NCBI GenBank assembly: GCA_021791275.1
Contig: JAJYWX010000034.1
Coordinates: 1-46,384, forward strand
From: a bacterium
Lineage (GTDB): Bacteria > Patescibacteriota > Dojkabacteria > JAKAPS01 > JAJZLI01
Length of the DNA: 46,384 bases
Direction: 5' to 3'
Part shown: piece by piece, positions 26,758 to 45,597 of the stretch
Numbering within the stretch: the first letter of the stretch is position 1
How the letters are laid out: each line of letters starts with the position of its first letter
The notes under the pieces: generated by a model
Told to the model about the DNA's origin: nothing
The model's input: the letters and a program-made list of their open reading frames with translations, nothing else
Database searches by the model: none
Program-made: the position numbers and the translations under genes

Positions 26758-27435
26758 ATGGAAAAAAAACAAACTATTTTAATAGTTGAGGATGAGAGAA
26801 AAATATCTAGCTTCATAAAAAGAGGTTTAACGGACGCAGGATATTTTGTAGATACAGCCTTTACTGGTGATGAGGCATTAGATAAGGTATCTGAGGAATT
26901 CAGTCTTATCATTCTTGACCTAATGCTTCCCGATATGGATGGATTCGATATCTGTAAAAAAATAAGGAAAGATGGAATCCAAGTTCCAATGATTATATTG
27001 ACAGCTAAAAATTCTACTGAGGATAAAATAAAGGGATTAGATATAGGGGCAGATGATTATCTCACAAAACCTTTTGCTATAGGCGAGCTTCTTTCAAGAA
27101 TAAAAGCTTTATTAAGGAGAGGTCCTTCAATATCTGGAGGGGAGCTTAAAGTTGGAGATTTAATTCTTAATACAAAAACTCATGAAGTCTATAGAAATGG
27201 AAAATTGATAGAACTATCACAAAAGGAATTCTCTATACTCGAGTATATGATGTACAATAAAGATATAGTTTTGACAAGGACAATGATAGAAGATCATGCT
27301 TGGGATTATGAATTTGATAATTTTTCTAATGTTGTAGATGTATATATACGAATGTTAAGAAAGAAAATAGATGATGGATATAAAAACAAAATTATTAAAA
27401 CTATACGAGGAGTGGGCTACAAAGTTAAAGGATAA
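26758..27435 (+). CDS. OmpR/PhoB-family response regulator
   Basis: IVEDE, ILDLMLP..DG, LTAK, GADDYLTKPF, SNVVDVYI..LRKK and TIRGVGY motifs. Confidence 0.96.
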   Translation: MEKKQTILIVEDERKISSFIKRGLTDAGYFVDTAFTGDEALDKVSEEFSLIILDLMLPDMDGFDICKKIRKDGIQVPMIILTAKNSTEDKIKGLDIGADDYLTKPFAIGELLSRIKALLRRGPSISGGELKVGDLILNTKTHEVYRNGKLIELSQKEFSILEYMMYNKDIVLTRTMIEDHAWDYEFDNFSNVVDVYIRMLRKKIDDGYKNKIIKTIRGVGYKVKG

Positions 27436-28828
27436 TAATTTATTTTCAACATTAAAATTTAAATTTTTATTTTGGAACATAATATTATCTACTGTTTCAA
27501 TATTTATAATATTGTTTGCATTCTTTGAAACAGCACAATATGTTCTCTACTCTCAATTCAACTCCAATCTACTTTATACTGCTCATGAGGTATCTTCTCT
27601 CGTAGGTAATTCTTCCTCTCAGTATAATTCTGATAATATATATCAATTTCATAATAAAAAGTTCATAGGATATTTTATACTAGTGCTAAATTCTAATGGA
27701 CATGTTATTGCTGAATCTAATGATATTAAATTAAGTGGATCTTTTATAAAAGATTTATTTGGAGCTGTACAAAAGAAATCAACATCTTCTGTGTTTAATC
27801 AAAATATAGGAGGAAGAGAGTTATCCTTAGTTTCTTTGCCTGTATTTAATAGTTTTAATGATCTTACAGGTGTTGTTATTGTAGGGAATTCTGTAGATAT
27901 AATTAATCAAACTTTGCATACACTTTTCTTCGTAATGTTTTTTATGTCCTTAATATTCATATTTATTGTAGTTTTATTTACTTTTTATTTTTCAGATAAA
28001 ATTACAGAACCTTTAAGTGAAATTACATCTCAAATTGTATCAATAACTGGGTTTAATCTTAACCAAAGGCTCCAAAAAGGAAATTATGAGGTTGAGTTCA
28101 ATGTCTTGTCTGATGAGTTTAATAAACTATTTGATAGACTAGAGGCTACATTTCAAAGGGAGAAGAATTTTATAAATGATGTTGCACATGAGATAAAAAC
28201 ACCACTTGCTATTATTCGCGGAGAGAATGAATTAGCATTAAATAAGAAAAATGAAGATATTAAATTTTATAGAAAGATACTGGAGGCTAATATAAGCCAG
28301 TCGAGTAAAATTGAAAAGGTATTAAATGATGTTTTATCTTTGGCTAGAATTGAGTACAGAAGTATATCATATAAGAGTGAAAGAATTAATTTATATGAAG
28401 TTTTATCAGAAATGTCAGAAGATATTAAAATTATGGCAGAGGGTAAAAAGTTGAATTTTGAATTTTTACACAAAGGTAAAGATTTTTATATTTTTGCTAA
28501 TAAGGAAAATATATCTAAGGCTATATTTAATATAGTTTCTAATTCTTTAAAGTATACTAAAAGTGGCTTTATAAAAATGAATCTTTATAAGAAGAATAAA
28601 AATATATTTATAGAAATTGAAGATAGTGGTATTGGAATAGAAGAAAAAGATAAACAGAGAATCTTTAACAGGTTCTATAGAGCATCAAATGTCAAAAATA
28701 TTGATGGGTCAGGATTAGGGCTATCTTTATCTAAATCTATAATCGAAGGTTATCTGGGATCTATATTTGTAGAAAGTGAAATTGGTAAAGGATCCAAATT
28801 TACCATAAATTTTAATGAAATTAAGTAA
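27371..28828 (+). CDS. Sensor histidine kinase (2 TM, HAMP, HisKA, HATPase)
   Basis: VAHEIKTPL, NIVSNSLKY, DSGIGI and GSGLGLS boxes; start uncertain (27371 or 27374, overlapping the regulator). Confidence 0.92.
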   Translation: MMDIKTKLLKLYEEWATKLKDNNLFSTLKFKFLFWNIILSTVSIFIILFAFFETAQYVLYSQFNSNLLYTAHEVSSLVGNSSSQYNSDNIYQFHNKKFIGYFILVLNSNGHVIAESNDIKLSGSFIKDLFGAVQKKSTSSVFNQNIGGRELSLVSLPVFNSFNDLTGVVIVGNSVDIINQTLHTLFFVMFFMSLIFIFIVVLFTFYFSDKITEPLSEITSQIVSITGFNLNQRLQKGNYEVEFNVLSDEFNKLFDRLEATFQREKNFINDVAHEIKTPLAIIRGENELALNKKNEDIKFYRKILEANISQSSKIEKVLNDVLSLARIEYRSISYKSERINLYEVLSEMSEDIKIMAEGKKLNFEFLHKGKDFYIFANKENISKAIFNIVSNSLKYTKSGFIKMNLYKKNKNIFIEIEDSGIGIEEKDKQRIFNRFYRASNVKNIDGSGLGLSLSKSIIEGYLGSIFVESEIGKGSKFTINFNEIK

Positions 28829-34535: not shown

Positions 34536-36344
34536 TCAGATCATATTGTACTTTCGTACAAAAGATGGGAGAACAATTGTTCTTGCGATGAATGCTTCAA
34601 TCAGAAATGCCAGAGCGAGTAGCTCAGCTAACTGAATAATTGATGCATTCATGCTGACGATAGAGAACCCAGAGAGCACAGTAAACATTGCAAATGCTCC
34701 ACCCATTACTGGGAGTGATGTTCTCTTTATGCTGTTTTGGATGAAATCTGCTTCCCCTCTTTTTTTTCTTTTTCTCATGTCATTGATTATGAGAATGTGG
34801 TAGTAAGTTGCAAACCCAACGTATACCGGGATTGCGATGATGGGGTCAACTATGTTGTAGACGTTGTACCCTGTGATTTTACTACCAATAATCATAATCC
34901 CAAATGCTGCTCCTAAGGGGAGAAGTTTCAGTAGCACAGTTAAAAGTGCTAGGTGAAACTTTTTGAACAGTACCAAGCTCAAAAGGAAAGGTATTGCTAC
35001 AAGTTCCAATGGTATTAACCATGGGAGTGAGTTACCCAACCTTTTGTTAAAATCAATGATAGTTTCTCCGGCTCCTCCTATTTCTACTTTTGGGAATGAT
35101 TCTTGTATTTTTTGAATCATTCTTGATTGTTCCATTGCAGGAATAGTTGTGGGGATGTAAACTACTCCTTTGTTGATTTTCCCATGAAATTCTTTTGCTA
35201 AAGAAACCTCCTCTTTGGCGTCTCCTATCACTACTACTGGAAAAAGACTTTCCTGAGGGAAAATCCTTGATATTTCCTCGGTAGTAGTTTGGATTTTACC
35301 TGCAGGCTCTGTCTGATTCAACAGTGGAATACTCAGATTCTCTGTATTCTTAACAGGATTCTGAGGGTTTCCAATCCTTAGGATAGATATTGGAAGTGAT
35401 AGAACTACTAACACTCCAATAAATATCCACCCCACCTTGTGAGACCTTATTCTTGTTACCTTGAAAGGTAGCTTATTTTTAGTCTCAAGGATTCTTGACC
35501 TATTTGCATAGATTAAGAATGGGGTTACTGTCGAATTCAAGATTACGCTTACTACTGCAGTGATGCATACTGCAAGCCCCATTGATCTTACAACTTTTTG
35601 ATCTATAAAGATCAAAGGAATGCTTGTAAGAACAAGTGCAATGCCTGCTTTGAGAATGACCTCCTTAAGAAGTGAGAACACTTCTTTCATGCTTTCCGTC
35701 TCCCTATATGTATGAATCATCCCTAAGGGATAATCTACATTTGTAGAGAGTGCAATTGTGTTTGCTGTAGTTGCAGCAAGAATTGAAACTGGTGAAAGGA
35801 AGTGTACTAGGTAAAGAATAAAGTACACTATTCCTACTGTCAGTAATGCTACTGAAAGAGGAATTACTGAAACAAAGAAAGCTCCAAACAGAAGGATCAT
35901 TACAGGAAGAAGAAAAATACTACTTCCTAGGTCAGAAACTTCAGTTTGTGTTTTGATTTGGTTCAGTTCACCGTATTCAATTGCTGGAACTCCAGAAACT
36001 TGTGCGATTCCCTTAACCTTTGATTCCACTTCTTGTAAAGTGGAGATTGATCCCGATTCTGAAGGAAAATTTCCTACGTAAGTTAGCAGAAAAATTTCCC
36101 CTTTTGAATCAACGGATGAAAGGGTCAAAGAGTGGAAAGGCTTAAGAAGTTTTTCAGTCTCAGCTTTTTTTTGAGTGAGTATCAGGATAGATGTATTTTC
36201 ACTTAAGTGAGAAAATACATATTCCTCTTCTGTATGAGGGGTGTTCCAGCCAGACAAACTTTCATTCATCTGAAGTGCTAGAAACCCATATACAGCGATT
36301 GCGGCAATTACTATTAAAAGTAATCGCCTCCTGTGGGATTTCAT
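34536..36344 (-). CDS. MMPL/RND-family transporter (divergent, higher GC)
   Basis: Two RND halves, VSGVPA and IGGAG linkers, TM4 NVDY motif, AGGAGA Shine-Dalgarno upstream. Confidence 0.8.
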   Translation of the reverse strand: MKSHRRRLLLIVIAAIAVYGFLALQMNESLSGWNTPHTEEEYVFSHLSENTSILILTQKKAETEKLLKPFHSLTLSSVDSKGEIFLLTYVGNFPSESGSISTLQEVESKVKGIAQVSGVPAIEYGELNQIKTQTEVSDLGSSIFLLPVMILLFGAFFVSVIPLSVALLTVGIVYFILYLVHFLSPVSILAATTANTIALSTNVDYPLGMIHTYRETESMKEVFSLLKEVILKAGIALVLTSIPLIFIDQKVVRSMGLAVCITAVVSVILNSTVTPFLIYANRSRILETKNKLPFKVTRIRSHKVGWIFIGVLVVLSLPISILRIGNPQNPVKNTENLSIPLLNQTEPAGKIQTTTEEISRIFPQESLFPVVVIGDAKEEVSLAKEFHGKINKGVVYIPTTIPAMEQSRMIQKIQESFPKVEIGGAGETIIDFNKRLGNSLPWLIPLELVAIPFLLSLVLFKKFHLALLTVLLKLLPLGAAFGIMIIGSKITGYNVYNIVDPIIAIPVYVGFATYYHILIINDMRKRKKRGEADFIQNSIKRTSLPVMGGAFAMFTVLSGFSIVSMNASIIQLAELLALAFLIEAFIARTIVLPSFVRKYNMI

Positions 36345-36457
36345 CTAAAGTTCTCCTTTTTTCGTCCAATTGTGAAAGAACTGCCATTATTATATCAAAT
36401 GGAAGTCGTATAGTAAATAAATATGAGGTTTATGAGGGAGGATTTTTATATCTTACT

Positions 36458-36799
36458 TTAAAGTATAAATATTGATATCAAAAGTATTATTAATACCAAT
36501 GATGTTATATACACAAATTTAGTATTTTTTTCCTGTTTAAACATGAATATCGAGAATATTACTCTCGAAAGAGGAGTAAGTATTAATATTAGTATTGGTA
36601 AAAAAACAAATGATGTTAATGTAAAATGCTGTATATAATTTATATAGAAAAAACTGTATATACTAGTATATTTGTATATATGTGAGATTCTATTATGACT
36701 AAAAGAAAAAATTATTCCAATTAAAGCTAATATAAAACTTAGACTGACTCCAATTCTTAAGATATAACTTATATATTTATTATAATCTATTTTCTTCAT
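36458..36799 (-). CDS. DUF1634-family membrane protein
   Basis: ILRIGV..S and LILTPLSRV motifs, 3 TM segments, coupled downstream of a TSUP gene as is typical. Confidence 0.8.
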   Translation of the reverse strand: MKKIDYNKYISYILRIGVSLSFILALIGIIFSFSHNRISHIYKYTSIYSFFYINYIQHFTLTSFVFLPILILILTPLSRVIFSIFMFKQEKNTKFVYITSLVLIILLISIFIL

Positions 36800-37626
36800 A
36801 ATAATCCCACCCCCCTTAAAACCATTTCTATAGCTATTATTAAAAGTATTATTGAGAATATAACTTTTAGATTTTGATTAGAAGTTTTTCTAAGTATTTT
36901 TGTCCCCAATAGAGATCCTATAAATATACCTGCCATTACAGGTAATGCTAAATAAGGGTTGATATATCCTTTTATAAGATAGATTACGGAGGATGCCAGT
37001 GCAGTGACGCCTATCATGAAATTAGAAGTTGTTGTAGAAACTTTCATTGGTATATGCATAATATCATCCATTGCAATTACCTTAAATACACCACTTCCAA
37101 TACCTAGTAGTCCTGAAGCAAAACCTGCTATATACATCATAATAAGTCCATATGGAGTATTATTTACACCATACTTATACACTACTCCATCATTATCCGT
37201 ATAAGATGATGCAAGTTCTAATTTTTTTGAAATATAGTCATTTTGGATTCCTTCTTTATTATTTTCTCTTTTCATGATCATAGGATATATACTTATTATT
37301 AGTACAAAAGCAAATATAAAAAAGAGTATTTGAGGGTTTATGATCCCAAGTAGAGTGGCCCCAGAAATAGCCCCTGTAGTTGTGGCAATTTCTAAAAACA
37401 TACCAGTTTTTAAATTTATTAGTTTATCTTTTAAATAAACAGATGCTGCACCAGAAGATGTTGCAATTACAGATATTATGCTAGCACCTATAGCTTCTCT
37501 TATATTTATATGATAAAGAAGTATTAATATAGGTATTATAACTATACCTCCCCCAATACCTAGCAGAGATCCTATAATCCCTGCTATTATAGCAAGCAGT
37601 ATTAGACTTATATAAAAAGTAAGCAT
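36796..37626 (-). CDS. TauE/SafE (TSUP) family transporter
   Basis: GSLLGIGGG, AIGASI..VIATSSG, SGLLGIGSG..KV and TSNFMIGVTA motifs. Confidence 0.92.
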   Translation of the reverse strand: MLTFYISLILLAIIAGIIGSLLGIGGGIVIIPILILLYHINIREAIGASIISVIATSSGAASVYLKDKLINLKTGMFLEIATTTGAISGATLLGIINPQILFFIFAFVLIISIYPMIMKRENNKEGIQNDYISKKLELASSYTDNDGVVYKYGVNNTPYGLIMMYIAGFASGLLGIGSGVFKVIAMDDIMHIPMKVSTTTSNFMIGVTALASSVIYLIKGYINPYLALPVMAGIFIGSLLGTKILRKTSNQNLKVIFSIILLIIAIEMVLRGVGLL

Positions 37627-37683: not shown

Positions 37684-37911
37684 TTATTCTACTTTATCTA
37701 TTGTATATTCAATTACCCCAGATTCTGTTTTTACTTTTACAATGTCATTTTTTTTCTTACCTAGAAGCATCTCTCCTACAGGAGATGTTTTGGTTATCTT
37801 TCCTAAAATTGGATCTGGATTATTTTCAACTATAACAAATTTGTATAGCTTATTCTCTTTTTTTGCATATACTGTAGAGCCTATTTTTACTATATTTTGT
37901 GCTTTGCTCAT
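37684..37911 (-). CDS. Stand-alone GreA/GreB C-terminal domain protein
   Basis: VKIGSTV, DP..GKI...SPVG..LLGKK.ND.V and Y.I..VE motifs; no N-terminal coiled coil. Confidence 0.8.
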   Translation of the reverse strand: MSKAQNIVKIGSTVYAKKENKLYKFVIVENNPDPILGKITKTSPVGEMLLGKKKNDIVKVKTESGVIEYTIDKVE

Positions 37912-37967
37912 ATTAATTCATTATATATCATAATACTTAAATTAATGCATTGCTATGTGTAGCAAAT

Positions 37968-40220
37968 TTAGGTTGTTTGTTTATGTAATAAATCTTGGCT
38001 ATGGAATTCGTTATCATTAGTATTAGTTTCTGTGGCTATTGGAATTGTAAATGAGAATGTAGATCCTTTACCTTCTTTACTATCTATCCATATTTTTCCA
38101 CCCATTCTTTCTACTAATCCTTTTACAACATAGAGTCCAAGTCCAGTTCCTCCAGGTCTTACTAATAGATGTTTAGTATCTTTAGGGTCGTTTGGATTAC
38201 CTACATAGTTATTTAATCTATGGAATTTCTGAAATAGTTCTGGTATATCTTTTTGAGGAATACCTACTCCATGATCTTTTATATGTACTGTGATAAACAT
38301 TTCATCTTTTTCTGTACTGATTTCTATAGCACCTCTTTCTGAATATTTAATAGCATTAGAAATCAAGTTTCCTAATACCTCTTCTATTTTTGTTCTATCT
38401 CCATATGCCATAGGTAAATCATTTTTATTATATATTATTTTTAATCCTTTACTCTCTGCATCTTTTTTAAATCCATCTACTTGGGATTCTATCATGCTGA
38501 CAAGATTTACATTTTCTTGAACGATTGGCACATCGGATTTCCCCATTCTAGAAGCTTCAAGAAGGGTATTAATTATCCTTATTTCACTTTCAATACTTTC
38601 AATACTTCTATCGATATATCTATTTAATTTCTCTATATATTCATTATTTTTTTTGTTATTTGGTAAAGTATTGATATATTCTTTTATTGTAGATTGAGCC
38701 ATATATACATTACCTTTTACAATACTTGCAGGGGTTCTAAGTTCATGTGAAGAAATAGAAATTAAATCATCTTTAAGTTGATCTAAGCCTTTCAAATCTT
38801 TATTGGCTTTTTCTAACTTCTTATTATTATTTTCTAACTCCTTTGTAGCTGAATCTATTTTTTCTTTAAGATGAGATATTAAATCTATATTTTCTTGAAA
38901 TAAAAATTCTCTATCTATGGCAATTTCTAAAAAGTCTATAATTCTAGTTAATATCTGTTGTTCTTCAATATCAAAAAAATCTTTATATATTTTATCTCCT
39001 ATTATTAATAGACCAAAGTCTCTAGATTTTAAATGTAAGGGAAAGATAAAAGATATACTATTTTTGTTCATATAGCGATATAATTTATCATTTTTTAATT
39101 TAAAATTATATATATAGTTTGAGGTTTTGAATATATTTAATGTTTCATCAAATGAAATTTTATAATTAAAATTTTCTCCTAGAATTTGTGTATTAGTATT
39201 TTGATATATAACAATACCAATTTTTTTTATATTAAAAATAGCCTTTATTTTATATAGTATTTTATTTATATTATATGTCATACTTATTTCTTTTATTATA
39301 TTCTCACTAGAGGTTTTTATTTCTTCAAAATTGTCAAATTTAATTATTTTGTTAATAATTTTCTTTATAGTTTTTGAGAAAATGAAATATAAAATAAATA
39401 ATGTTAATACAGATAAGAATATATAACTAATAGTGTTGTTACTATAATATTTATTAAATATTTTATAACTACTATATAAAAGAAAGAAGTATATAAAGAT
39501 GAAAAAAATAATGGCTAATATATAGAATATTGTTTGGGATAAGGTACTTTTTATGTTATGGAAATTTTTATTAATAATTGCTAAGTATGTAAATACTGAC
39601 ATAGATAATAAAGAAAGAGTTCCAATATTAATGTAAGAATATATATTAAATATAAGAGGAAGAATTATTTGGGTAATTGATAGAAATAATACAGATATTA
39701 AAGTTCCAAACAAGAAATAGTATAGTTTAGCTTTATTAATACCAAAAGAGATCTTTATTTTTTTGATAATGATATATATAGACAGAAAAATTAATCCGAT
39801 TAATAGAATAATATACAACGCAAACATTTTCCCAATTAATAGAGTATGTACACCATTTATTAATGATTCTTTATAGTCTATTGACGATGTTAATAAGGTT
39901 AAAAAAGATACTATTAAAAATAATATATTGATTATCCATGTTAATATTTTATTGAAAGATATTTTAAATGGAAAGTTTAATATAAAATAAAAAAAGCAAA
40001 ATATAAATACTAATGAATAAAAGAAATTTATTCTGCCTAGAAAAGTAATTACGCTATTAGTAGCATTCTCATATAAATATATTGATACAATCCATGATAT
40101 TAAAGAAAGAACGTAAAGCAAATATTGATAAAAATATTCTTCTTTTTCTTTCCTGAATAATAATAATAATATTGTTATTATATTAGTTATTATTATTATT
40201 GAATCGATTATTATATTCAT
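37968..40220 (-). CDS. Orphan sensor histidine kinase: N-terminal multi-TM (HisKA_7TM-like), degenerate GAF, HisKA, HATPase
   Basis: About 8 hydrophobic helices; FPL....GLLIIGDK...F..EE GAF-like segment; SHELRTP, NLISNAIKY, DHGVGI and GGTGLGL boxes. Confidence 0.9.
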   Translation of the reverse strand: MNIIIDSIIIITNIITILLLLFRKEKEEYFYQYLLYVLSLISWIVSIYLYENATNSVITFLGRINFFYSLVFIFCFFYFILNFPFKISFNKILTWIINILFLIVSFLTLLTSSIDYKESLINGVHTLLIGKMFALYIILLIGLIFLSIYIIIKKIKISFGINKAKLYYFLFGTLISVLFLSITQIILPLIFNIYSYINIGTLSLLSMSVFTYLAIINKNFHNIKSTLSQTIFYILAIIFFIFIYFFLLYSSYKIFNKYYSNNTISYIFLSVLTLFILYFIFSKTIKKIINKIIKFDNFEEIKTSSENIIKEISMTYNINKILYKIKAIFNIKKIGIVIYQNTNTQILGENFNYKISFDETLNIFKTSNYIYNFKLKNDKLYRYMNKNSISFIFPLHLKSRDFGLLIIGDKIYKDFFDIEEQQILTRIIDFLEIAIDREFLFQENIDLISHLKEKIDSATKELENNNKKLEKANKDLKGLDQLKDDLISISSHELRTPASIVKGNVYMAQSTIKEYINTLPNNKKNNEYIEKLNRYIDRSIESIESEIRIINTLLEASRMGKSDVPIVQENVNLVSMIESQVDGFKKDAESKGLKIIYNKNDLPMAYGDRTKIEEVLGNLISNAIKYSERGAIEISTEKDEMFITVHIKDHGVGIPQKDIPELFQKFHRLNNYVGNPNDPKDTKHLLVRPGGTGLGLYVVKGLVERMGGKIWIDSKEGKGSTFSFTIPIATETNTNDNEFHSQDLLHKQTT

Positions 40221-40221
40221 T

Positions 40222-40247
40222 TATATAAGTATATATATACTTATATA
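40222..40247. promoter_or_regulatory. Perfect 26-bp palindrome overlapping the kinase -10 element
   Basis: TATATAAGTATAT|ATATACTTATATA; contains minus-strand TATACT 7 nt before the kinase ATG. Confidence 0.45.
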
Positions 40248-40420
40248 TTAAATCAATTAATAAAATATTATATACATATGGATTTTAATATATAAATCTT
40301 TTGTAAATTTATTTATTAAGAGTTATTAAATAATTATAGGGTATCCCATTCTATCTTTGTTAATGTTATATTAGTTATTACTATTTTTATTATGATATTT
40401 AGATTTAGTAATCAAACTTT

Positions 40421-41260
40421 CTAATTATTTTTTTCCTCTCTCATATTTCTTAGAAAGTATTTAACTATCTCTTTTGGTCCCAATGATAATAAATATAATA
40501 ATCTCTCTATTGTAAAGGAACTTATAATTCTATATGTACCATTTTTAAATAGTATTTGTGCATCCATGTTTTTCACTATATTATATGTTAATGATTCTGT
40601 CGATGTCCAAAAAATAGCAATATCTGGGAGCTTGCCTACATCTAATTCTTTTATAAAATGTCTGAACAATTCTTGTAATTTACTTAATCCTCTTTCATTA
40701 TTTAATGATGCAATTTCTTTTATAAATAAAACGGGTCCTACCATATCAATTGCTAATTTTCTTAAGAATTCTTTTTTTAATTCAGGTTTATCTACATATT
40801 CTTCTTCGTGCTGCATCCATATATCATGAGCGTCATTTGTAAGGTGCCCAGATATAAATCCTGTTATTGAATTATTTTTTATTGAAACAAGAAAAATACC
40901 ATTTTTTTCTCTTAAATTTCTTATCTCATTACTGAATGATTCGAAAGTATGATATATTGATAACTCTCCACCACACTCACATCTTGTATCTTTATTCCTT
41001 TCAAAGATGCCTAATAAATCTTTTTCCCCTTTTTCTATTGGAGAATATATAGTATATGGATAATTTTTATTGCATTTTTTACACCTAACAAATTCATTCC
41101 ACCCGTTATTTTCACTAGAGTCTCCAAATGCCATTAAGTATGCATTATATGCATCTCTAATTAATTCTGGAGATGGATTCTTTACTATATCTATAAAATA
41201 GGTAGTAGAAGGATCCATCTCTTTCATATAGATAGGTTTTTCATTTACTGCTGTTTCCAT
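40421..41260 (-). CDS. GNAT-fold acyltransferase-like protein with Zn-finger insertion
   Basis: AY..AF...WNE then CKKC...CECGG insertion; ITGFISG strand; FIKEIAS.NNERGLS resembling GNAT motif A; FWT strand. Confidence 0.6.
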   Translation of the reverse strand: METAVNEKPIYMKEMDPSTTYFIDIVKNPSPELIRDAYNAYLMAFGDSSENNGWNEFVRCKKCNKNYPYTIYSPIEKGEKDLLGIFERNKDTRCECGGELSIYHTFESFSNEIRNLREKNGIFLVSIKNNSITGFISGHLTNDAHDIWMQHEEEYVDKPELKKEFLRKLAIDMVGPVLFIKEIASLNNERGLSKLQELFRHFIKELDVGKLPDIAIFWTSTESLTYNIVKNMDAQILFKNGTYRIISSFTIERLLYLLSLGPKEIVKYFLRNMREEKNN

Positions 41261-42351
41261 TATTTATTTTTGATATTTCTCAACCTAGAATGAACCTTTA
41301 ATATCTTTACAATACTTCTTCTCATATTATTATACACAGAGTTCCAAGATTTATCTGCACTAATCCATATTGTTTCCTGAGGATTATTTTCAGCTATAGA
41401 TATAATTATATGAGCGGATAAACCTGCTGTAATAAAAGATGCTACTAAGCTTTGAGGTATGTTATCAGAATCTATATATTTTTTATCTGCCATTCTTGCT
41501 AATCTTTCTGGCATTCTTATTGCTCCTTGTGGATATCTTAGAATAGTAGGTACTTTTCTAGAAGAGTGTACAATTATATCAAAGTCATTAGTATTATGAG
41601 GATCTTTTCTTACCATTTTACTTACTTGTTCATCTTTTATCTTTCCATTATATAATTTTCTTTTTTTGTTTTCTATGCGATAATCATACACTTCTATATG
41701 TACATCATGCCCCAAATCTAAAGGGTAAATAATAATTTTTCCTTGTCTATATGCTTCATGGTGTAATTTTTGTAATATTGTTAAGTCATCAAATGATGCT
41801 ATTATTATATCGTTATTAGTTACAATTTCTTCTATGTCAGCATCTTCTAGGTTTTTAGGATGAGCTTCTACCTGAACGTATGGATTTATTAATGCAAGTC
41901 TATTGGCCCTATCATTTGCTTTATTTTTCCCAATACTTCTTAAGTCAATAGCTTGTTTATCCATATTTTCAATACTATATTCATCACCATCATATAAATC
42001 TAATCTATGCACCCCTAGTCTTGCCATAGCAGATGATGTATAACTTCCAACTGAACCTAATCCAACAATTCCTATAGAATACTGTCTTATTCTCTCAATA
42101 GTATCTTTCTCTACACATGGAATCATATGAGAAGTAGTCTCTTCTAAATATGAGGTCATTCCTTCATTAGTATAATCTAGAGCTATTACTTGGCAATATT
42201 CATTATGATAGAACTCTACCTCTCCGGAATTTAAATCTATATCAAATGGATTTATTATTTCAGAATCATCTTTGGGCTTCTCTACTTTTCTTAAATACCT
42301 AGTAATTAAAGATTGCCCTATATGAGAATTTTTTTCATTTTCAGGTTTCAT
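41260..42351 (-). CDS. ThiF/MoeB/E1-like adenylyltransferase (no Zn motif; MoeY/OxzB-like)
   Basis: IVGLGSVGS, LYDGD.YS.ENMDKQ, GKNKA, INPY and DIIIASFDD motifs; C-terminal PQ..AS..AG; TAATG-coupled to the GNAT. Confidence 0.88.
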   Translation of the reverse strand: MKPENEKNSHIGQSLITRYLRKVEKPKDDSEIINPFDIDLNSGEVEFYHNEYCQVIALDYTNEGMTSYLEETTSHMIPCVEKDTIERIRQYSIGIVGLGSVGSYTSSAMARLGVHRLDLYDGDEYSIENMDKQAIDLRSIGKNKANDRANRLALINPYVQVEAHPKNLEDADIEEIVTNNDIIIASFDDLTILQKLHHEAYRQGKIIIYPLDLGHDVHIEVYDYRIENKKRKLYNGKIKDEQVSKMVRKDPHNTNDFDIIVHSSRKVPTILRYPQGAIRMPERLARMADKKYIDSDNIPQSLVASFITAGLSAHIIISIAENNPQETIWISADKSWNSVYNNMRRSIVKILKVHSRLRNIKNK

Positions 42352-42479
42352 AATAATTTAAACTAATATAACTTAATGAATTGTACAACATATTATCCCA
42401 GATGTAAATATTATAAGCTTTTGATAATTATTAAAATATAATATCTTCTCTTCATGAGTAGTTTTTAAAAAAGTCATTA

Positions 42480-42508
42480 TTGCAATACACTATGAGTTTT
42501 GATATAAT
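42480..42508 (+). promoter_or_regulatory. Sigma70 promoter for the VirD4-like/MmyB-like pair
   Basis: TTGCAA, 17 nt, (TGA)TATAAT. Confidence 0.55.
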
Positions 42509-42535
42509 CTCTCATATATAATTTAATCATATATA

Positions 42536-44782
42536 GTGGTTAGAATAAAAAAGAAAAGTATTATTGAAATTATCCAGGAGCCTGTGATCCTTAAAATTGC
42601 AGTTCCTAAGAATAATGAAAAGACTCCTTTAGCTGGAGAACAGCTATTCACTTCTATACATGGGATTTTAAATGATAGCAAAATTTCAAAGAATCATTTT
42701 AGTCTAGAGATAATATCTTCAGTACAGGGAATCTCATTTTGCGTTGTAATATCAAAGGAGTATAAAGACTTTATTAAAGGGCAGATATATGCACAATATC
42801 CTAGTGCTGAAATTATTGAAGAAAGTGATTATTGTTCATCATTTAATCAGTATAGATATTTTTATTCTACTGAAATTTCTTTTGGTAAAGATTATATATT
42901 TCCTATTAGGACTTTTCCAAATTTTGAAGTAGATCCTCTTTCATCTATAACTAGTGCTATGAGTTCTAAAATAGATAATAGTGATTTATCTTCCATTCAA
43001 ATACTTATTAGGCCAATTAATAATACCTGGCAAAGTAAAAGCAAAAGATATGTTGAAAGAGTAAAAAATTCAAGGAAATCAATGATATCAATCTTTGCTT
43101 CAAGTACAGATAAAAGTAAAGTTGAAAAAAATTTTTCAAGTTTAGAAGAGAATGAAATCTCTCAGATAGAAAATAAGGTATTAAAAGTAGGATATATCTT
43201 TTCTATTAGGGTTATATCTTTATCAAATACATTTGATAATCCTAAAATTAATGTATCAAATATGATAGCATCTTTTAAACAATTTACATCACCTCATCTT
43301 AATCACTTTGTAGAAATTAAAAATAGTAGTAAAGATAAGAATATTCTTAGTAAATTTCAATCTAGATATATGGGTAGTAAGGTGAAAAGTATAATTAATG
43401 TTGAAGAATTAGCTTCCCTATATCATTTACCAAATATATCAGTAGAAACACCATCTATTATATATTCAAAAGCAAAAAAATCAGAACCTCCATTAGATTT
43501 GCCAGTTGAGGGTGTTAATTTTATAGGGAAAACTAATTTTAGAGGCATGAATAAGAGGTTTGGTATCAAAAGGGAAGATAGAAGAAGACATATGTACATA
43601 TTAGGAAAAACTGGGACAGGAAAAAGTACAATGATGAAAAATATGATAATTCAAGACATACAAGCAGGTGAAGGTGTAGGTATTTTTGATCCTCATGGTG
43701 AACTCGCAGAAAGTATACTTGATTATATACCTTCTAATAGAGTTAATGACGTTGTTATTATTGATCCATCTGATATAGATAATCCAGTTTCAATCAATTT
43801 ATTAGATTTAAAAGATAAATCTTTAAAAGATTTAGTTGCAGATAATATTGTTTCTGTTTTTAAGAAACACTTTGATTCATGGGGACCTAGGTTAGAGTAT
43901 CTACTTCATAATTGCATACTTACATTAATTCAAGTTGATAATACTTCGATTTTGGGTATTCAGAGAATATTGATTGATAAAAAATATAGAGAATCTATTT
44001 TAAAACAGATAGATGATCCAATATTATTGCGATTTTGGAAAGAAGAATATGAAGGTATGGAGAAAAATCCAAGACTTACGGCAGAAGCAATAGCTCCAAT
44101 TCAAAATAAGGTGGGAAGATTCCTCTCTTCGTCTACAATAAGAAACTTAGTTGGTCAAGTGACTTCAACTATTGATTTAGAAGATATTATAAATTCAAAA
44201 AAAATATTGATAGTAAATTTATCACAAGGAAAGATAGGAGAAGAAAGTGCATCACTTTTAGGAGGTATGCTTATAACAAAGTTACAATCAGCTGCTATGC
44301 AAAGAGTCAGAATTGTTGATGAGACTCAAAGAGAAGATTTTTATCTTTATGTTGATGAATTTCAAATATTTGCAACTAATGCATTTTCAAAAATTTTGTC
44401 TGAATCAAGGAAATATAGATTAAATCTAGTATTAGCTCATCAATATATATCACAATTAGAAGAAAGTATCCAGAATGCAATTTTTGGAAATATTGGAACA
44501 ATAATATCTTTTGTAATTGGGCCACGAGATGCAGATGTACTTGAAAAAGAATTTACACCTTTATTTACCAATGAAGATCTAATATCATTAGATAAACATC
44601 ATTTTTATATAAGATTAATGATAGATGGAATGATTTCGAAACCATTTAGTGCTATATCTGAAGATATTCAATATGAAAAAACATTTAATAAAGAGAAGGT
44701 TATTAAAGTTTCAAGAGAAAGGTATTCTAGAAAAAAAGAAATAGTTGAAGATAAAATTAATAGATGGTCCAATAATAGTTAA
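42536..44782 (+). CDS. VirD4/TraG/HerA-like P-loop ATPase (type IV secretion DNA-binding domain protein)
   Basis: RRRHMYILGKTGTGKS Walker A, DPHGE, LYVDEFQ Walker B and SESRKYRL.LAHQY motifs. Confidence 0.9.
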   Translation: MVRIKKKSIIEIIQEPVILKIAVPKNNEKTPLAGEQLFTSIHGILNDSKISKNHFSLEIISSVQGISFCVVISKEYKDFIKGQIYAQYPSAEIIEESDYCSSFNQYRYFYSTEISFGKDYIFPIRTFPNFEVDPLSSITSAMSSKIDNSDLSSIQILIRPINNTWQSKSKRYVERVKNSRKSMISIFASSTDKSKVEKNFSSLEENEISQIENKVLKVGYIFSIRVISLSNTFDNPKINVSNMIASFKQFTSPHLNHFVEIKNSSKDKNILSKFQSRYMGSKVKSIINVEELASLYHLPNISVETPSIIYSKAKKSEPPLDLPVEGVNFIGKTNFRGMNKRFGIKREDRRRHMYILGKTGTGKSTMMKNMIIQDIQAGEGVGIFDPHGELAESILDYIPSNRVNDVVIIDPSDIDNPVSINLLDLKDKSLKDLVADNIVSVFKKHFDSWGPRLEYLLHNCILTLIQVDNTSILGIQRILIDKKYRESILKQIDDPILLRFWKEEYEGMEKNPRLTAEAIAPIQNKVGRFLSSSTIRNLVGQVTSTIDLEDIINSKKILIVNLSQGKIGEESASLLGGMLITKLQSAAMQRVRIVDETQREDFYLYVDEFQIFATNAFSKILSESRKYRLNLVLAHQYISQLEESIQNAIFGNIGTIISFVIGPRDADVLEKEFTPLFTNEDLISLDKHHFYIRLMIDGMISKPFSAISEDIQYEKTFNKEKVIKVSRERYSRKKEIVEDKINRWSNNS

Positions 44783-44787
44783 AATTT

Positions 44788-45597
44788 ATGAAGAATAACA
44801 TAGGAGAATACATAAAATCAAAAAGATTAACATATAATAATCAGGGGATTAGCCAGTTAGATCTCTCATTAAAAATTGGATGGGAAAATCCTTCAACTTT
44901 ATCAAGAATAGAGCAAGGGGATACTATTCCGAATAAAGATACTGTGATAAGAATATTAAAAGCTTTAGATATAAATGAATCTTTAATAATTTTTATACTT
45001 ATGAAAAATCTTTATCTGTATGATACTCCTATTAATAATAACTATATAAATAAGGTAATAAAAAATATAGGGAAGAGGCTTGAGTATTCTGAATATCCTA
45101 TATTTGTATCTTTTTTCCCGAGTAATATGATAGAAGAGAATTTATATATTAATGATTTATTATTTAAAATATTTATTGGTGAGAATTCTACAGGAAATAG
45201 TACGCAAAAATTTTTATTTAAAAAGGATGTAATTGAACTTCTATTTAATCCAGAATATGAATTTTATAATAGAGTTATTAATGGAGATGAATTTAGAAAG
45301 ATAATCGTCAATAATATGTATATAATTTTTAATGGAGAAAAAGATGAAGAAGGATACATTAATAGCTTGATGAAATTTAAAGATATGAAAAAATTTTGGA
45401 ATGAAAAAGTTTTATCGTCAAAGAATTTACAATTTTTTAATATACCTTTTATATATGATTCTCCATTAGTTGGAAAGATATCATTTTTTGTAGACAAAAT
45501 ACCTTTTATAGATGATAATAGGTTTTTCATACAAAAATTTATTCCACAGGGAAAAGAAGATTTCCTGAAATTAGAAAAAATAAAGAACATTCATTAA
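44788..45597 (+). CDS. XRE-HTH transcriptional regulator with MmyB-like ligand-binding domain
   Basis: SQLDLS..IG.....LSRIEQG..P HTH; C-terminal P.FV, ELLF.P, KFW, SPLVGKISF and FIP pattern of the MmyB/MltR ligand-binding domain. Confidence 0.8.
   Translation: MKNNIGEYIKSKRLTYNNQGISQLDLSLKIGWENPSTLSRIEQGDTIPNKDTVIRILKALDINESLIIFILMKNLYLYDTPINNNYINKVIKNIGKRLEYSEYPIFVSFFPSNMIEENLYINDLLFKIFIGENSTGNSTQKFLFKKDVIELLFNPEYEFYNRVINGDEFRKIIVNNMYIIFNGEKDEEGYINSLMKFKDMKKFWNEKVLSSKNLQFFNIPFIYDSPLVGKISFFVDKIPFIDDNRFFIQKFIPQGKEDFLKLEKIKNIH

Follow-up and report, generated by a model that had tools for sequence, protein, structure and literature searches.

In the staphylococcal agr system, a hypervariable stretch covers agrB, agrD and the sensor region of agrC, the signal is a ribosomal thiolactone peptide and the regulator AgrA is encoded beside agrC. 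In the Vibrio-type pairs LuxM/LuxN, AinS/AinR and CqsA/CqsS, the gene of the signal synthase lies beside the gene of a multi-transmembrane (multi-TM) sensor kinase. Here, we analyse a stretch of 46,384 nt (contig JAJYWX010000034.1 of assembly GCA_021791275.1, whose whole length is called the window below) from a member of the class Dojkabacteria (Patescibacteriota, within the candidate phyla radiation or CPR), in which a cassette at positions 37968–42351 encodes a ThiF-like adenylating enzyme, a GNAT-fold protein and a multi-TM/GAF histidine kinase. Judged from comparisons with related loci, the putative specificity region of the sensor and the enzymes of such cassettes diversify as a unit, whether by replacement or by divergence in place. 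CPR bacteria have tiny genomes and depend on hosts, and to our knowledge almost nothing is known of how they sense partners or kin; a literature search whose coverage did not extend to subscription journals returned no paper on such a signalling system in CPR bacteria or Dojkabacteria.

Like agr, the cassettes combine putative signal-making genes and a kinase sensor half that vary together with a transmitter half that is kept, and the boundary between both halves is sharp; unlike agr, whose signal is ribosomally made, the window encodes small-molecule enzymes and has no adjacent regulator. With the Vibrio-type pairs it shares a putative small-molecule synthase gene adjoining that of a multi-TM kinase, which would bind the lipophilic product, but the enzyme families are unrelated, the window sensor has a GAF domain after its membrane part and the kinase is not a hybrid with a receiver. 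LuxQ was the only Vibrio-type sensor model among the best 25 of 77 NCBIfam matches.

The enzymes themselves recall oxazolone biosynthesis. An N-acyltransferase, a ThiF-like enzyme and a nitroreductase form an established oxazolone pathway in the accessible text of PMC10404671 (TyzA/B/C) and PMC12596934 (OxzA/OxzB, also treated in the OxzAB preprint). ThiF-like enzymes are established to adenylate carboxylates and give oxazolones when the substrates are N-acyl amino acids, and in TrzS of the TrzA/TrzS system the ThiF-like cyclisation comes before desaturation (PMC12856293, accessible part). The window cassette likewise pairs an acyltransferase fold with a ThiF-like, putatively ATP-dependent enzyme, its sister cassettes have FeeM-like synthases and relatives from other classes add a nitroreductase; unlike the Oxz, Tyz and Trz pathways, the window cassette has no nitroreductase, its GNAT falls outside the N-acyl amino acid synthase family by sequence and its ThiF, at 46 bits, is far below the Rv1355c cut-off of 476. 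In the portions of these texts that were searched, the word kinase does not occur in the OxzAB preprint or in PMC12856293, nor the term histidine kinase in PMC12596934. In PEP-CTERM/exosortase loci (TIGR03694, PrsK/PrsR) a multi-TM/GAF kinase is also linked to an enzyme family that the sister FeeM-like enzymes match; however, this match is below the cut-off (41 vs. 112 bits), the window GNAT gives none, the sensor matches no NCBIfam model and no exosortase context was seen.

Organization of the cassette

The source genome (0.89 Mb in 37 contigs) is 96% complete, and the G+C content of the window is 23–34%. The cassette has the following parts:

41260–42351, minus strand: ThiF/E1-like adenylating enzyme of 363 aa (PF00899)
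40421–41260, minus strand: GNAT-fold protein of 279 aa with an inserted Cys4 zinc ribbon (structural model and fold searches)
40221–40420, no strand: AT-rich spacer of 200 bp between the GNAT and kinase genes, without any open reading frame (ORF) of at least 20 aa
37968–40220, minus strand: histidine kinase of 750 aa, whole gene (multi-TM, GAF, HisKA and HATPase)
38871–40220, minus strand: sensor half of the kinase, aa 1–450, the variable part (hydropathy, GAF profile)
37968–38870, minus strand: transmitter half of the kinase, aa 451–750, the conserved part (coiled coil, HisKA, HATPase_c)

As a preliminary description of the window had stated, the three genes are codirectional at these coordinates, and ThiF is translationally coupled to the GNAT, its TAA stop codon and the ATG of the GNAT gene having 1 nt in common (...AAATAATGG...). 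The locus was found near-identical on contigs of runs from three further studies, so the arrangement is not an assembly artefact of one sample: a contig of run X6 crosses the sensor/core junction (38563–39674) with 0 differences, and one of run X5 covers the GNAT and ThiF genes (40249–42524) with 2 differences and 2 gaps.

Contig depths added up to about 2–4 times as much over the stretch of the kinase core (37934–38935) as over positions 38936–42442 (sensor, GNAT and ThiF) in runs X5, X6 and X9, and short contigs with 7–12 differences lay on the former. Co-occurring relatives having the core without the cassette would explain this excess, contig depth being a weak measure.

Linkage of the ThiF and kinase genes in the class

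PF00899 was matched in 37 of the 221 genomes of the class, once in each. The kinase family adjoins ThiF in 31 of these 37; in the other six (G003, G007, G024, G105, G135 and G179) contig ends interrupt the locus. There is no clear case of an unlinked ThiF. This count comes from the coordinates of a search with the kinase sensor, which matched 88 of the 221 genomes, together with gene maps of the fetched regions. Counts from such genome profile searches are lower bounds, as the GNAT family profile (A1) gave 1 of 221 genomes and the kinases of genomes G005 and G004 were missed. In seven fetched loci with relatives of the window ThiF, a kinase homologue adjoins in six.

The exact trio with a zinc-ribbon GNAT was found nowhere else, and the window GNAT was present in no other genome of 60 relatives. 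Searches of the fetched loci with hmmsearch detected A1-like proteins in G065 and G034, and phmmer ties a protein of G036 to that of G065. Further searches for related loci yielded none with the window kinase among genome contigs, and none with A9 or with P0004, a relative of the window GNAT, among metagenome contigs. Therefore, the trio proposed in the preliminary description is not conserved as such, whereas its ThiF plus kinase module is, in 31 of the 37 genomes with ThiF.

Some of these loci deserve separate mention. The kinase gene beside ThiF in G165 (C42:3249–4448) contains 11 stop codons (2 TGA, 5 TAG and 4 TAA) and is apparently a decayed copy of a cassette receptor. In the genus g102 (L054, L056, L057, L064 and L066), a cassette of ThiF, FeeM-like enzyme and kinase lies between tsf (EF-Ts) and frr (ribosome recycling factor), and looks like an insertion into this housekeeping block. 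In G009, a protein of 568 aa (L019:7045–8751) has its ThiF domain at residues 287–426, preceded by some 270 N-terminal residues of no named family, and the kinase is divergent; this protein may be a partner enzyme fused to ThiF.

Enzymes and sensor half vary together

An alignment of 42 kinases was used to score the sensor (aa 1–470) and the core (aa 471–740) apart. The core of the window kinase was 80.0% identical to that of G001, 78.1% to that of G005 and 61.4% to that of G004, whereas the respective sensor identities were 20.7%, 20.9% and 20.4%, no better than against any other kinase of the class. Against its nearest relatives, the membrane part of the window sensor is 17–19% identical and the GAF part 24–26%. 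G001 and G004, which both have a PaaK-like enzyme, are 59.6% identical in the core and 41.5% in the sensor. The same pattern holds among all pairs with cores at least 50% identical, kin not being independent in these comparisons: mean sensor identity was 56–97%, depending on the bin, for the 61 pairs of the same cassette type and 21–25% for the 41 pairs of different type. The change is abrupt, with identity jumping from about 20% to 80–100% within some 30 residues, at aa 440–460, just before the phospho-acceptor helix.

The surroundings of the cassette are shared with G001, as indicated by the identities of TauE (94%), the GreA C-terminal domain protein (60%), the kinase core (78%), the N-terminus of a TrwB-like ATPase (73%), a helix-turn-helix (HTH) protein (44%) and a phosphomannomutase (80%), while the sensor, the GNAT and ThiF gave no tblastn match at the G001 locus. 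At the level of sequence, ThiF, the middle enzyme and the sensor half are shown to change together between close relatives, whereas the core and the flanks stay.

Trees point in the same direction. On quick LG+G4 trees, in which seven of the 13 cassette types are singletons, the sensor tree requires 12 changes of cassette type, as few as 13 types allow, and the core tree 17; for taxonomic family, with a minimum of 11, the respective numbers are 16 and 13. An approximately unbiased (AU) test on the genus g27, for which the groups were named once the trees were at hand, rejected a single clade on the sensor and core trees alike and so did not discriminate.

Enzymes encoded between ThiF and the kinase

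The genes preceding the kinase were mapped in 26 of the best 29 loci of the sensor search, L026, L033 and L046 being dropped because they lie at contig ends. The order ThiF, a protein of about 270 aa and kinase was found in 12 of the 26. Seven of 10 members of this 270-aa family matched FeeM (PF21926; best E 6.6e-7), and matches to TIGR03694 were also obtained (E 1.2e-10 and 2.7e-7), in both cases below the curated cut-off. Upstream of ThiF, L018, L022 and L089 also encode a response regulator of a single domain and a small helical protein.

Other enzymes fill the middle slot elsewhere: a PaaK-like ligase in G004 and G001, of the window's own family, and a 257-aa protein with sub-threshold LuxI and Acetyltransf_5 matches in G005, while in G003 a DAO oxidase and an aminotransferase adjoin ThiF. 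A1-like GNATs without a zinc ribbon are encoded directly upstream of the kinase in L058, L065 and L072, where they pair with a HisRS/HisZ-like adenylating enzyme instead of ThiF and with a DDAH/arginine dihydrolase-like enzyme. The kinase is preceded in one locus by a pyruvoyl histidine decarboxylase and a protein of no named family, and in another by a glycosyltransferase-like protein. Two further families, neither of which Pfam matches at default thresholds, each go with a sensor clade of their own: one of 546–556 aa with a weak methyltransferase match (three loci: L062, L067 and L068), and one of 420–471 aa (six loci: L059, L069, L073–L075 and L077). Both may be further signal enzymes; profile searches of the PDB with the FeeM-like family and the 420–471-aa family gave nothing useful.

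A profile of the cassette-type ThiF matched 72 of 401 genomes sampled across the phylum, 66 of them out of the class. In a sample of 25 of these 66, examined with flanks of 1.5 kb, a PaaK-like ligase was adjacent in 17–18 loci and a nitroreductase in 11, a kinase N-terminus was present in 12 at a distance of up to 1.5 kb, and single loci had an aromatic amino acid lyase, an aminotransferase or an alpha/beta-hydrolase. By analogy, the amide-forming enzyme, ThiF and nitroreductase of these out-of-class loci follow the enzyme logic of oxazolone biosynthesis. Neither a cassette-type nitroreductase nor a PaaK-like ligase was found in the window's genome, whose one PF00881 nitroreductase gene (contig C16) is unrelated to the cassette type; the cassette itself has no nitroreductase, in agreement with the preliminary description.

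The ThiF-like enzyme

The enzyme matches PF00899 (E 1.4e-25, residues 77–216) and has the nucleotide-binding motif GLGSVG at residue 97. Residues G97, G102, D121, N129, K144 and D188 are invariant among its relatives (alignment A2). Two CxxC zinc motifs are typical of the ThiF/MoeB family; here, residues 53 and 79 are the only cysteines, hence there is no CxxC, which bears out the earlier assignment to a ThiF/E1-like enzyme without zinc motifs. Its scores fall below the cut-off of every NCBIfam equivalog (bits/cut-off: ThiF 88.5/159, MoeB 68.4/266, TcdA 40.3/304 and Rv1355c 46.2/476). An identity as TcdA was rejected because NF011696 was not passed, and one as the sulfur-carrier adenylyltransferase ThiF/MoeB because of its score, the lack of CxxC and the absence of ThiS/MoaD from the genome.

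The latter family (PF02597) was not found in the 96%-complete genome, which has a single ThiF gene, and this combination argues that ThiF is not a housekeeping enzyme. Among the nine neighbouring proteins, to which the scan was limited, there was no family of molybdenum cofactor or thiamine synthesis, so the earlier observation that no such genes or sulfur carriers are nearby is upheld.

A structural model was obtained from a 15-row alignment with a mean predicted local distance difference test (pLDDT) of 64.2 and values below 50 at residues 1–14, 30–38, 227–299 and 332–340, the core alone being confident. This core is close to solved E1-like folds (Z-scores: AclA 9egb 26.2, MoeB 25.1, PaaA 23.5, MccB 23.1 and TcdA 21.0), and since all E1 subfamilies lie at Z 21–26, the predicted fold does not assign a subfamily. 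Thus, a clustering with TcdA or MoeB is contradicted by the sequence scores, far below the cut-offs, whereas the fold is equally close to all of them. Word-index searches for homologues returned the proteins themselves only, plus one weak ThiF match.

The N-terminal region of about 76 residues is extra and poorly modelled, and no such extension is present in the ThiFs of FeeM-type cassettes. An ORF of 34 aa (42373–42477, minus strand) ends 21 bp upstream of ThiF; it has no counterpart in other loci and is probably due to chance in AT-rich DNA.

The GNAT-fold protein

The GNAT gave no Pfam or NCBIfam match at E<=0.1, and Pfam yielded no acetyltransferase model for any of the eight family members. 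In a word-index search of 5.8 billion proteins it found itself only, whereas 10 proteins, itself included, reached E<=0.001 when 1.84 billion representatives were scanned in full with HMMER. Alignment A1 consists of the GNAT and seven of these relatives, a repeat protein (P0005) and a zinc-ribbon repeat protein (P0008) having been dropped, and its profile matches the GNAT 1u6m weakly (E 0.0043).

The assignment rests mainly on structure. An AlphaFold model built on the eight-row alignment (pLDDT 75.3, predicted template modelling score 0.77) was compared by a VIA search, in which all 50 entries listed have a GNAT fold or a GNAT-like acyltransferase fold. The best of them was 1wwz (Z 12.5, root mean square deviation 3.0 over 154 residues); LasI (Z 11.2) and FeeM (Z 11.1), over 172 residues each and just below the ordinary GNATs at 12.5, amount to a statistical tie. 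Foldseek gave 116 matches at E<=0.001, those listed being acetyltransferases. Four cysteines, C60xxC63 and C94xC96, form the Cys4 zinc ribbon inserted in this fold, an insert that is missing from P0012 and from three Dojkabacteria relatives. These data agree with the earlier description of a GNAT-like protein with a zinc finger.

The acyl-CoA pyrophosphate-binding motif of GNATs is Q/R-x-x-G-x-G/A. E182 and R190 are invariant in A1, and G191 follows R190 in the window GNAT; the canonical six-residue motif is not clearly present. A candidate identity as an N-acyl amino acid synthase or LuxI-like protein was discarded, since PF21926, PF00765 and TIGR03694 gave no match at E<=0.1. The nearest ESM Atlas clusters include unnamed CPR proteins, and the structure rows are Acetyltransf_1 clusters with TM-scores of 0.46–0.65; overall, the protein seems closer to ordinary acetyltransferases.

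The kinase and its possible output

The kinase matches HATPase_c (E 9.5e-28) and HisKA (E 5.6e-5), and its boxes are intact, with the H-box SHELRTP at residue 491, the N box at 618 and GTGLG at 691. Hydropathy indicates about 8–9 hydrophobic segments in residues 1–290. The GAF domain was revealed by profile A7 (25 family members, residues 285–470), which matched 3o5y (E 2e-10), the GAF domain of PDE5 (3lfv, E 9e-6), 3eea and the GAF domain of DevS. The multi-TM/GAF histidine kinase previously read from the sequence is therefore confirmed, but the likeness to PrsK that had been suggested for it was not recovered: the sensor (residues 1–470) matched no NCBIfam model at E<=0.1 and no Pfam family, including PF16927, even at E<=5, and PrsK was absent from the best 25 of 77 whole-protein matches. 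In the ESM Atlas, the cluster nearest to the sensor half is HisKA_7TM plus GAF (score 0.95), 65% of whose members carry PF16927; the structure rows have TM-scores of 0.55–0.58.

No response regulator adjoins the kinase, as had been noted, the nearest receiver in the window (26776–27105) having its own adjoining kinase. This receiver belongs to a response regulator of 225 aa that overlaps the start of a 485-aa kinase gene (26758–28828, plus strand); it is the genome's only receiver on a long ORF, and the pair, 10 kb from the cassette, is the window's one classical two-component pair. Of the five receiver domains in the genome, four belong to short ORFs (122–139 aa), among which the two on contigs C27 and C18 have no kinase as a neighbour.

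The spacer upstream of the kinase has no terminator-like site on the minus strand, and its promoter-like sites are at chance level (47 found vs. 45.7 expected).

Genes flanking the cassette

The following genes lie beside the cassette:

34536–37626, minus strand: genes of an MMPL-family transporter, a DUF1634 protein and a TauE/SafE exporter, downstream of the kinase
37684–37911, minus strand: protein of 75 aa with only the GreA/GreB C-terminal domain (PF01272, E 1.2e-11)
42536–44782, plus strand: HerA/TrwB-like ATPase of 748 aa (DUF87, TrwB_AAD_bind and TraG-D_C), flanking the cassette
44788–45597, plus strand: HTH_3 regulator with an MmyB-like ligand-binding domain (HTH_3 by Pfam; profile A6)

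The GreA-C gene is directly downstream of the kinase in the window and is a conserved flank in the window's family, with homologues adjoining the cassettes of G005, G001 and G003. Elsewhere in the genome, there is a full-length Gre-like gene (C18:60688–61161). The first 150 residues of the TrwB-like ATPase, which gave the identity quoted above, align with the beginning of an ORF of 260 aa that occupies the corresponding position in G001. The MMPL, DUF1634 and TauE genes were not seen beside other cassettes, save for part of TauE at the border of the G001 locus.

The HTH family adjoins cassettes that are not of the FeeM type (window, G005, G001, G036, G034 and G065), with copies in L017, L058, L065 and L081 (two each) and in L072. 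Its C-terminal domain has about 200 aa. Profile A6 matches 3pxp beyond the HTH (E 4.9e-6, profile positions 34–221), whereas Pfam reports only HTH_3 for the window's protein. According to the accessible part of PMC3406030, 3pxp (MltR) is an MmyB-like regulator crystallised with myristate. The MmyB-like HTH protein may be a second, cytoplasmic receptor.

Discussion

We judge the module to be real, conserved and unusual, a synthase plus receptor-kinase theme with ThiF-centred chemistry. The reading that we favour, and that we hold to be somewhat likelier right than wrong, is that the adjacent sensor recognises an amide or azlactone which the enzymes derive from an amino acid, the whole being a specificity cassette like that of agr; its chemistry, export and sensing are what we infer. 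ThiF would activate a carboxylate with ATP and the GNAT-fold enzyme would form an amide on an amino acid or an amine. The likeliest product would be a short-chain N-acyl amino acid, cyclised by ThiF to a saturated 5(4H)-oxazolone (azlactone), although ThiF might instead use the N-acyl amino acid to acylate a second amine, or supply the activated acyl group. Given that enzymes and sensor half co-vary, the multi-TM and GAF sensor half of the adjacent kinase would recognise the product of the cassette, and the conserved core would pass the signal to a response regulator encoded elsewhere. A signal acting outside the cell, as in quorum sensing, or inside the cell would both be compatible with this scheme.

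The preliminary description had likewise proposed a signal made by the enzymes and received by the kinase. In our judgement, this idea withstands the refuting conditions given there and has strong comparative support, namely the linkage in 31 of the 37 genomes, the lone ThiF without ThiS/MoaD, the FeeM-like sister enzymes, the nitroreductases of other classes and the co-variation of the sensor, whereas the exact trio was found nowhere else, the GNAT does not belong to the synthase family, the kinase is not PrsK and a long-chain acyl donor is doubtful. Similarly, of the proposed pair for N-acyl amino acids and oxazolones, the presence of a GNAT-fold enzyme adjoining ThiF stands, but by sequence this enzyme is not an N-acyl amino acid synthase.

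Several observations weigh against the signal and receptor reading. The co-variation is statistically limited: when only well-supported branches are counted there are three independent type changes, of which the sensor follows two or three and opposes none (sign test, p 0.25). In a further AU test, a single clade for the four family sensors was not quite rejected (p 0.0502), so very fast divergence in place, rather than swapping, would also be compatible with the data. The kinase has no adjacent response regulator, and none of the 31 loci measured has a wider gap than the 200 bp between the GNAT and the kinase; at all 26 other kinase loci examined, a codirectional gene ends <=75 bp upstream of the kinase. 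Several relatives of the kinase are preceded by proteins of no named family, for which the word enzyme is an assumption. Regarding the GNAT, its family showed no similarity to the FeeM-like family (A3) by hhalign (probability 0.1), its nearest Atlas clusters are also ordinary Acetyltransf_1 families, and no acyl carrier protein (ACP), AMP-binding (acyl-CoA) ligase, CoaE or PlsC was found in the source genome. The lack of an ACP, of the acyl-CoA ligase and of CoaE makes a long-chain acyl donor doubtful; three ordinary GNATs in the genome nevertheless imply the use of some acyl-CoA. These absences and the Atlas neighbours of the window GNAT favour a short acyl group, or activation supplied by ThiF, over a long-chain lipid.

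Among the alternatives, it is unlikely that the product serves some other purpose (for instance as an antibiotic, an envelope lipid or a host-directed compound) and that the kinase regulates the operon on an unrelated cue, even though kinases are common regulators in biosynthetic clusters, genes for an MMPL-family transporter and a TauE exporter follow downstream in the same direction, and the biological role of oxazolones is unknown according to the accessible part of the OxzAB preprint. If the cue were unrelated, there would be no reason for the sensor half to follow the enzyme set while the core is kept, and the MMPL and TauE genes are not a feature of other cassettes beyond the partial TauE match in G001. 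Slightly more doubtful is a variant of the favoured reading in which an imported, host-derived amino acid would be converted into an intracellular ligand or cofactor for the cytoplasmic GAF domain, so that the system would report on nutrients and not on cell density. This variant would account for the GAF domain itself, for the lack of an exporter conserved in the cassettes and for the amino-acid-converting enzymes found in other loci (pyruvoyl histidine decarboxylase, DDAH/arginine dihydrolase-like enzyme, aminotransferase, DAO and aromatic amino acid lyase), but the membrane part is as divergent as the GAF part (17–19% vs. 24–26% identity), which suggests that it also carries specificity; in no other respect do the data tell the variant apart from the favoured reading.

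That ThiF acts on the C-terminus of a peptide or protein, as in microcin C (MccB), PaaA or ubiquitin-like systems, the GNAT being a tailoring or immunity enzyme, appears very improbable. PaaA and MccB are indeed among its sequence and fold matches, and both the N-terminal extension of about 76 residues and the 34-aa ORF placed 21 bp upstream might be taken as signs of a peptide substrate; however, no counterpart of this ORF was seen in other loci, a response regulator or a divergent gene being found upstream there, the ThiFs of FeeM-type cassettes do without the extension, no ThiS-like carrier was found, cysteines 53 and 79 have no further companion in ThiF and the partner genes encode small-molecule enzymes. 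Least credible of all would be a housekeeping ThiF, MoeB or TcdA, working in sulfur transfer or on tRNA ct6A, as a chance neighbour of the GNAT and the kinase. By score, ThiF and MoeB rank first among the NCBIfam and PDB matches, and the fold (Z 21–26) does not separate E1 subfamilies, but the genome lacks ThiS/MoaD, the scores of 88.5 vs. 159 bits for ThiF and 40.3 vs. 304 bits for TcdA are far too low, and a gene present in only 37 of 221 class genomes, in 31 of them beside the kinase, is not what would be expected of a housekeeping function.

Tentatively, and with less confidence than in the signal and receptor reading of the cassette itself, the same scheme may be extended to the phylum: Patescibacteria might carry private chemical languages, in which ThiF-centred enzyme sets would make oxazolone, azlactone or N-acyl amino acid molecules, a dedicated multi-TM/GAF kinase would be the receptor, and enzymes and sensor half would be exchanged jointly as pherotype-like units.

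The cassette is a defined and testable candidate for a self-made signal and its receptor in a CPR bacterium, and its relatives provide natural specificity variants for cross-testing, namely the GNAT type of the window, the PaaK-like type of G001 and G004 and the FeeM type. The cassette is also relevant to the function of bacterial oxazolones. If the reading extended to the phylum is true, this would be the first native cell–cell or cell–host signalling system described for CPR bacteria, and the kinase would be the first receptor for the oxazolone class of metabolites.

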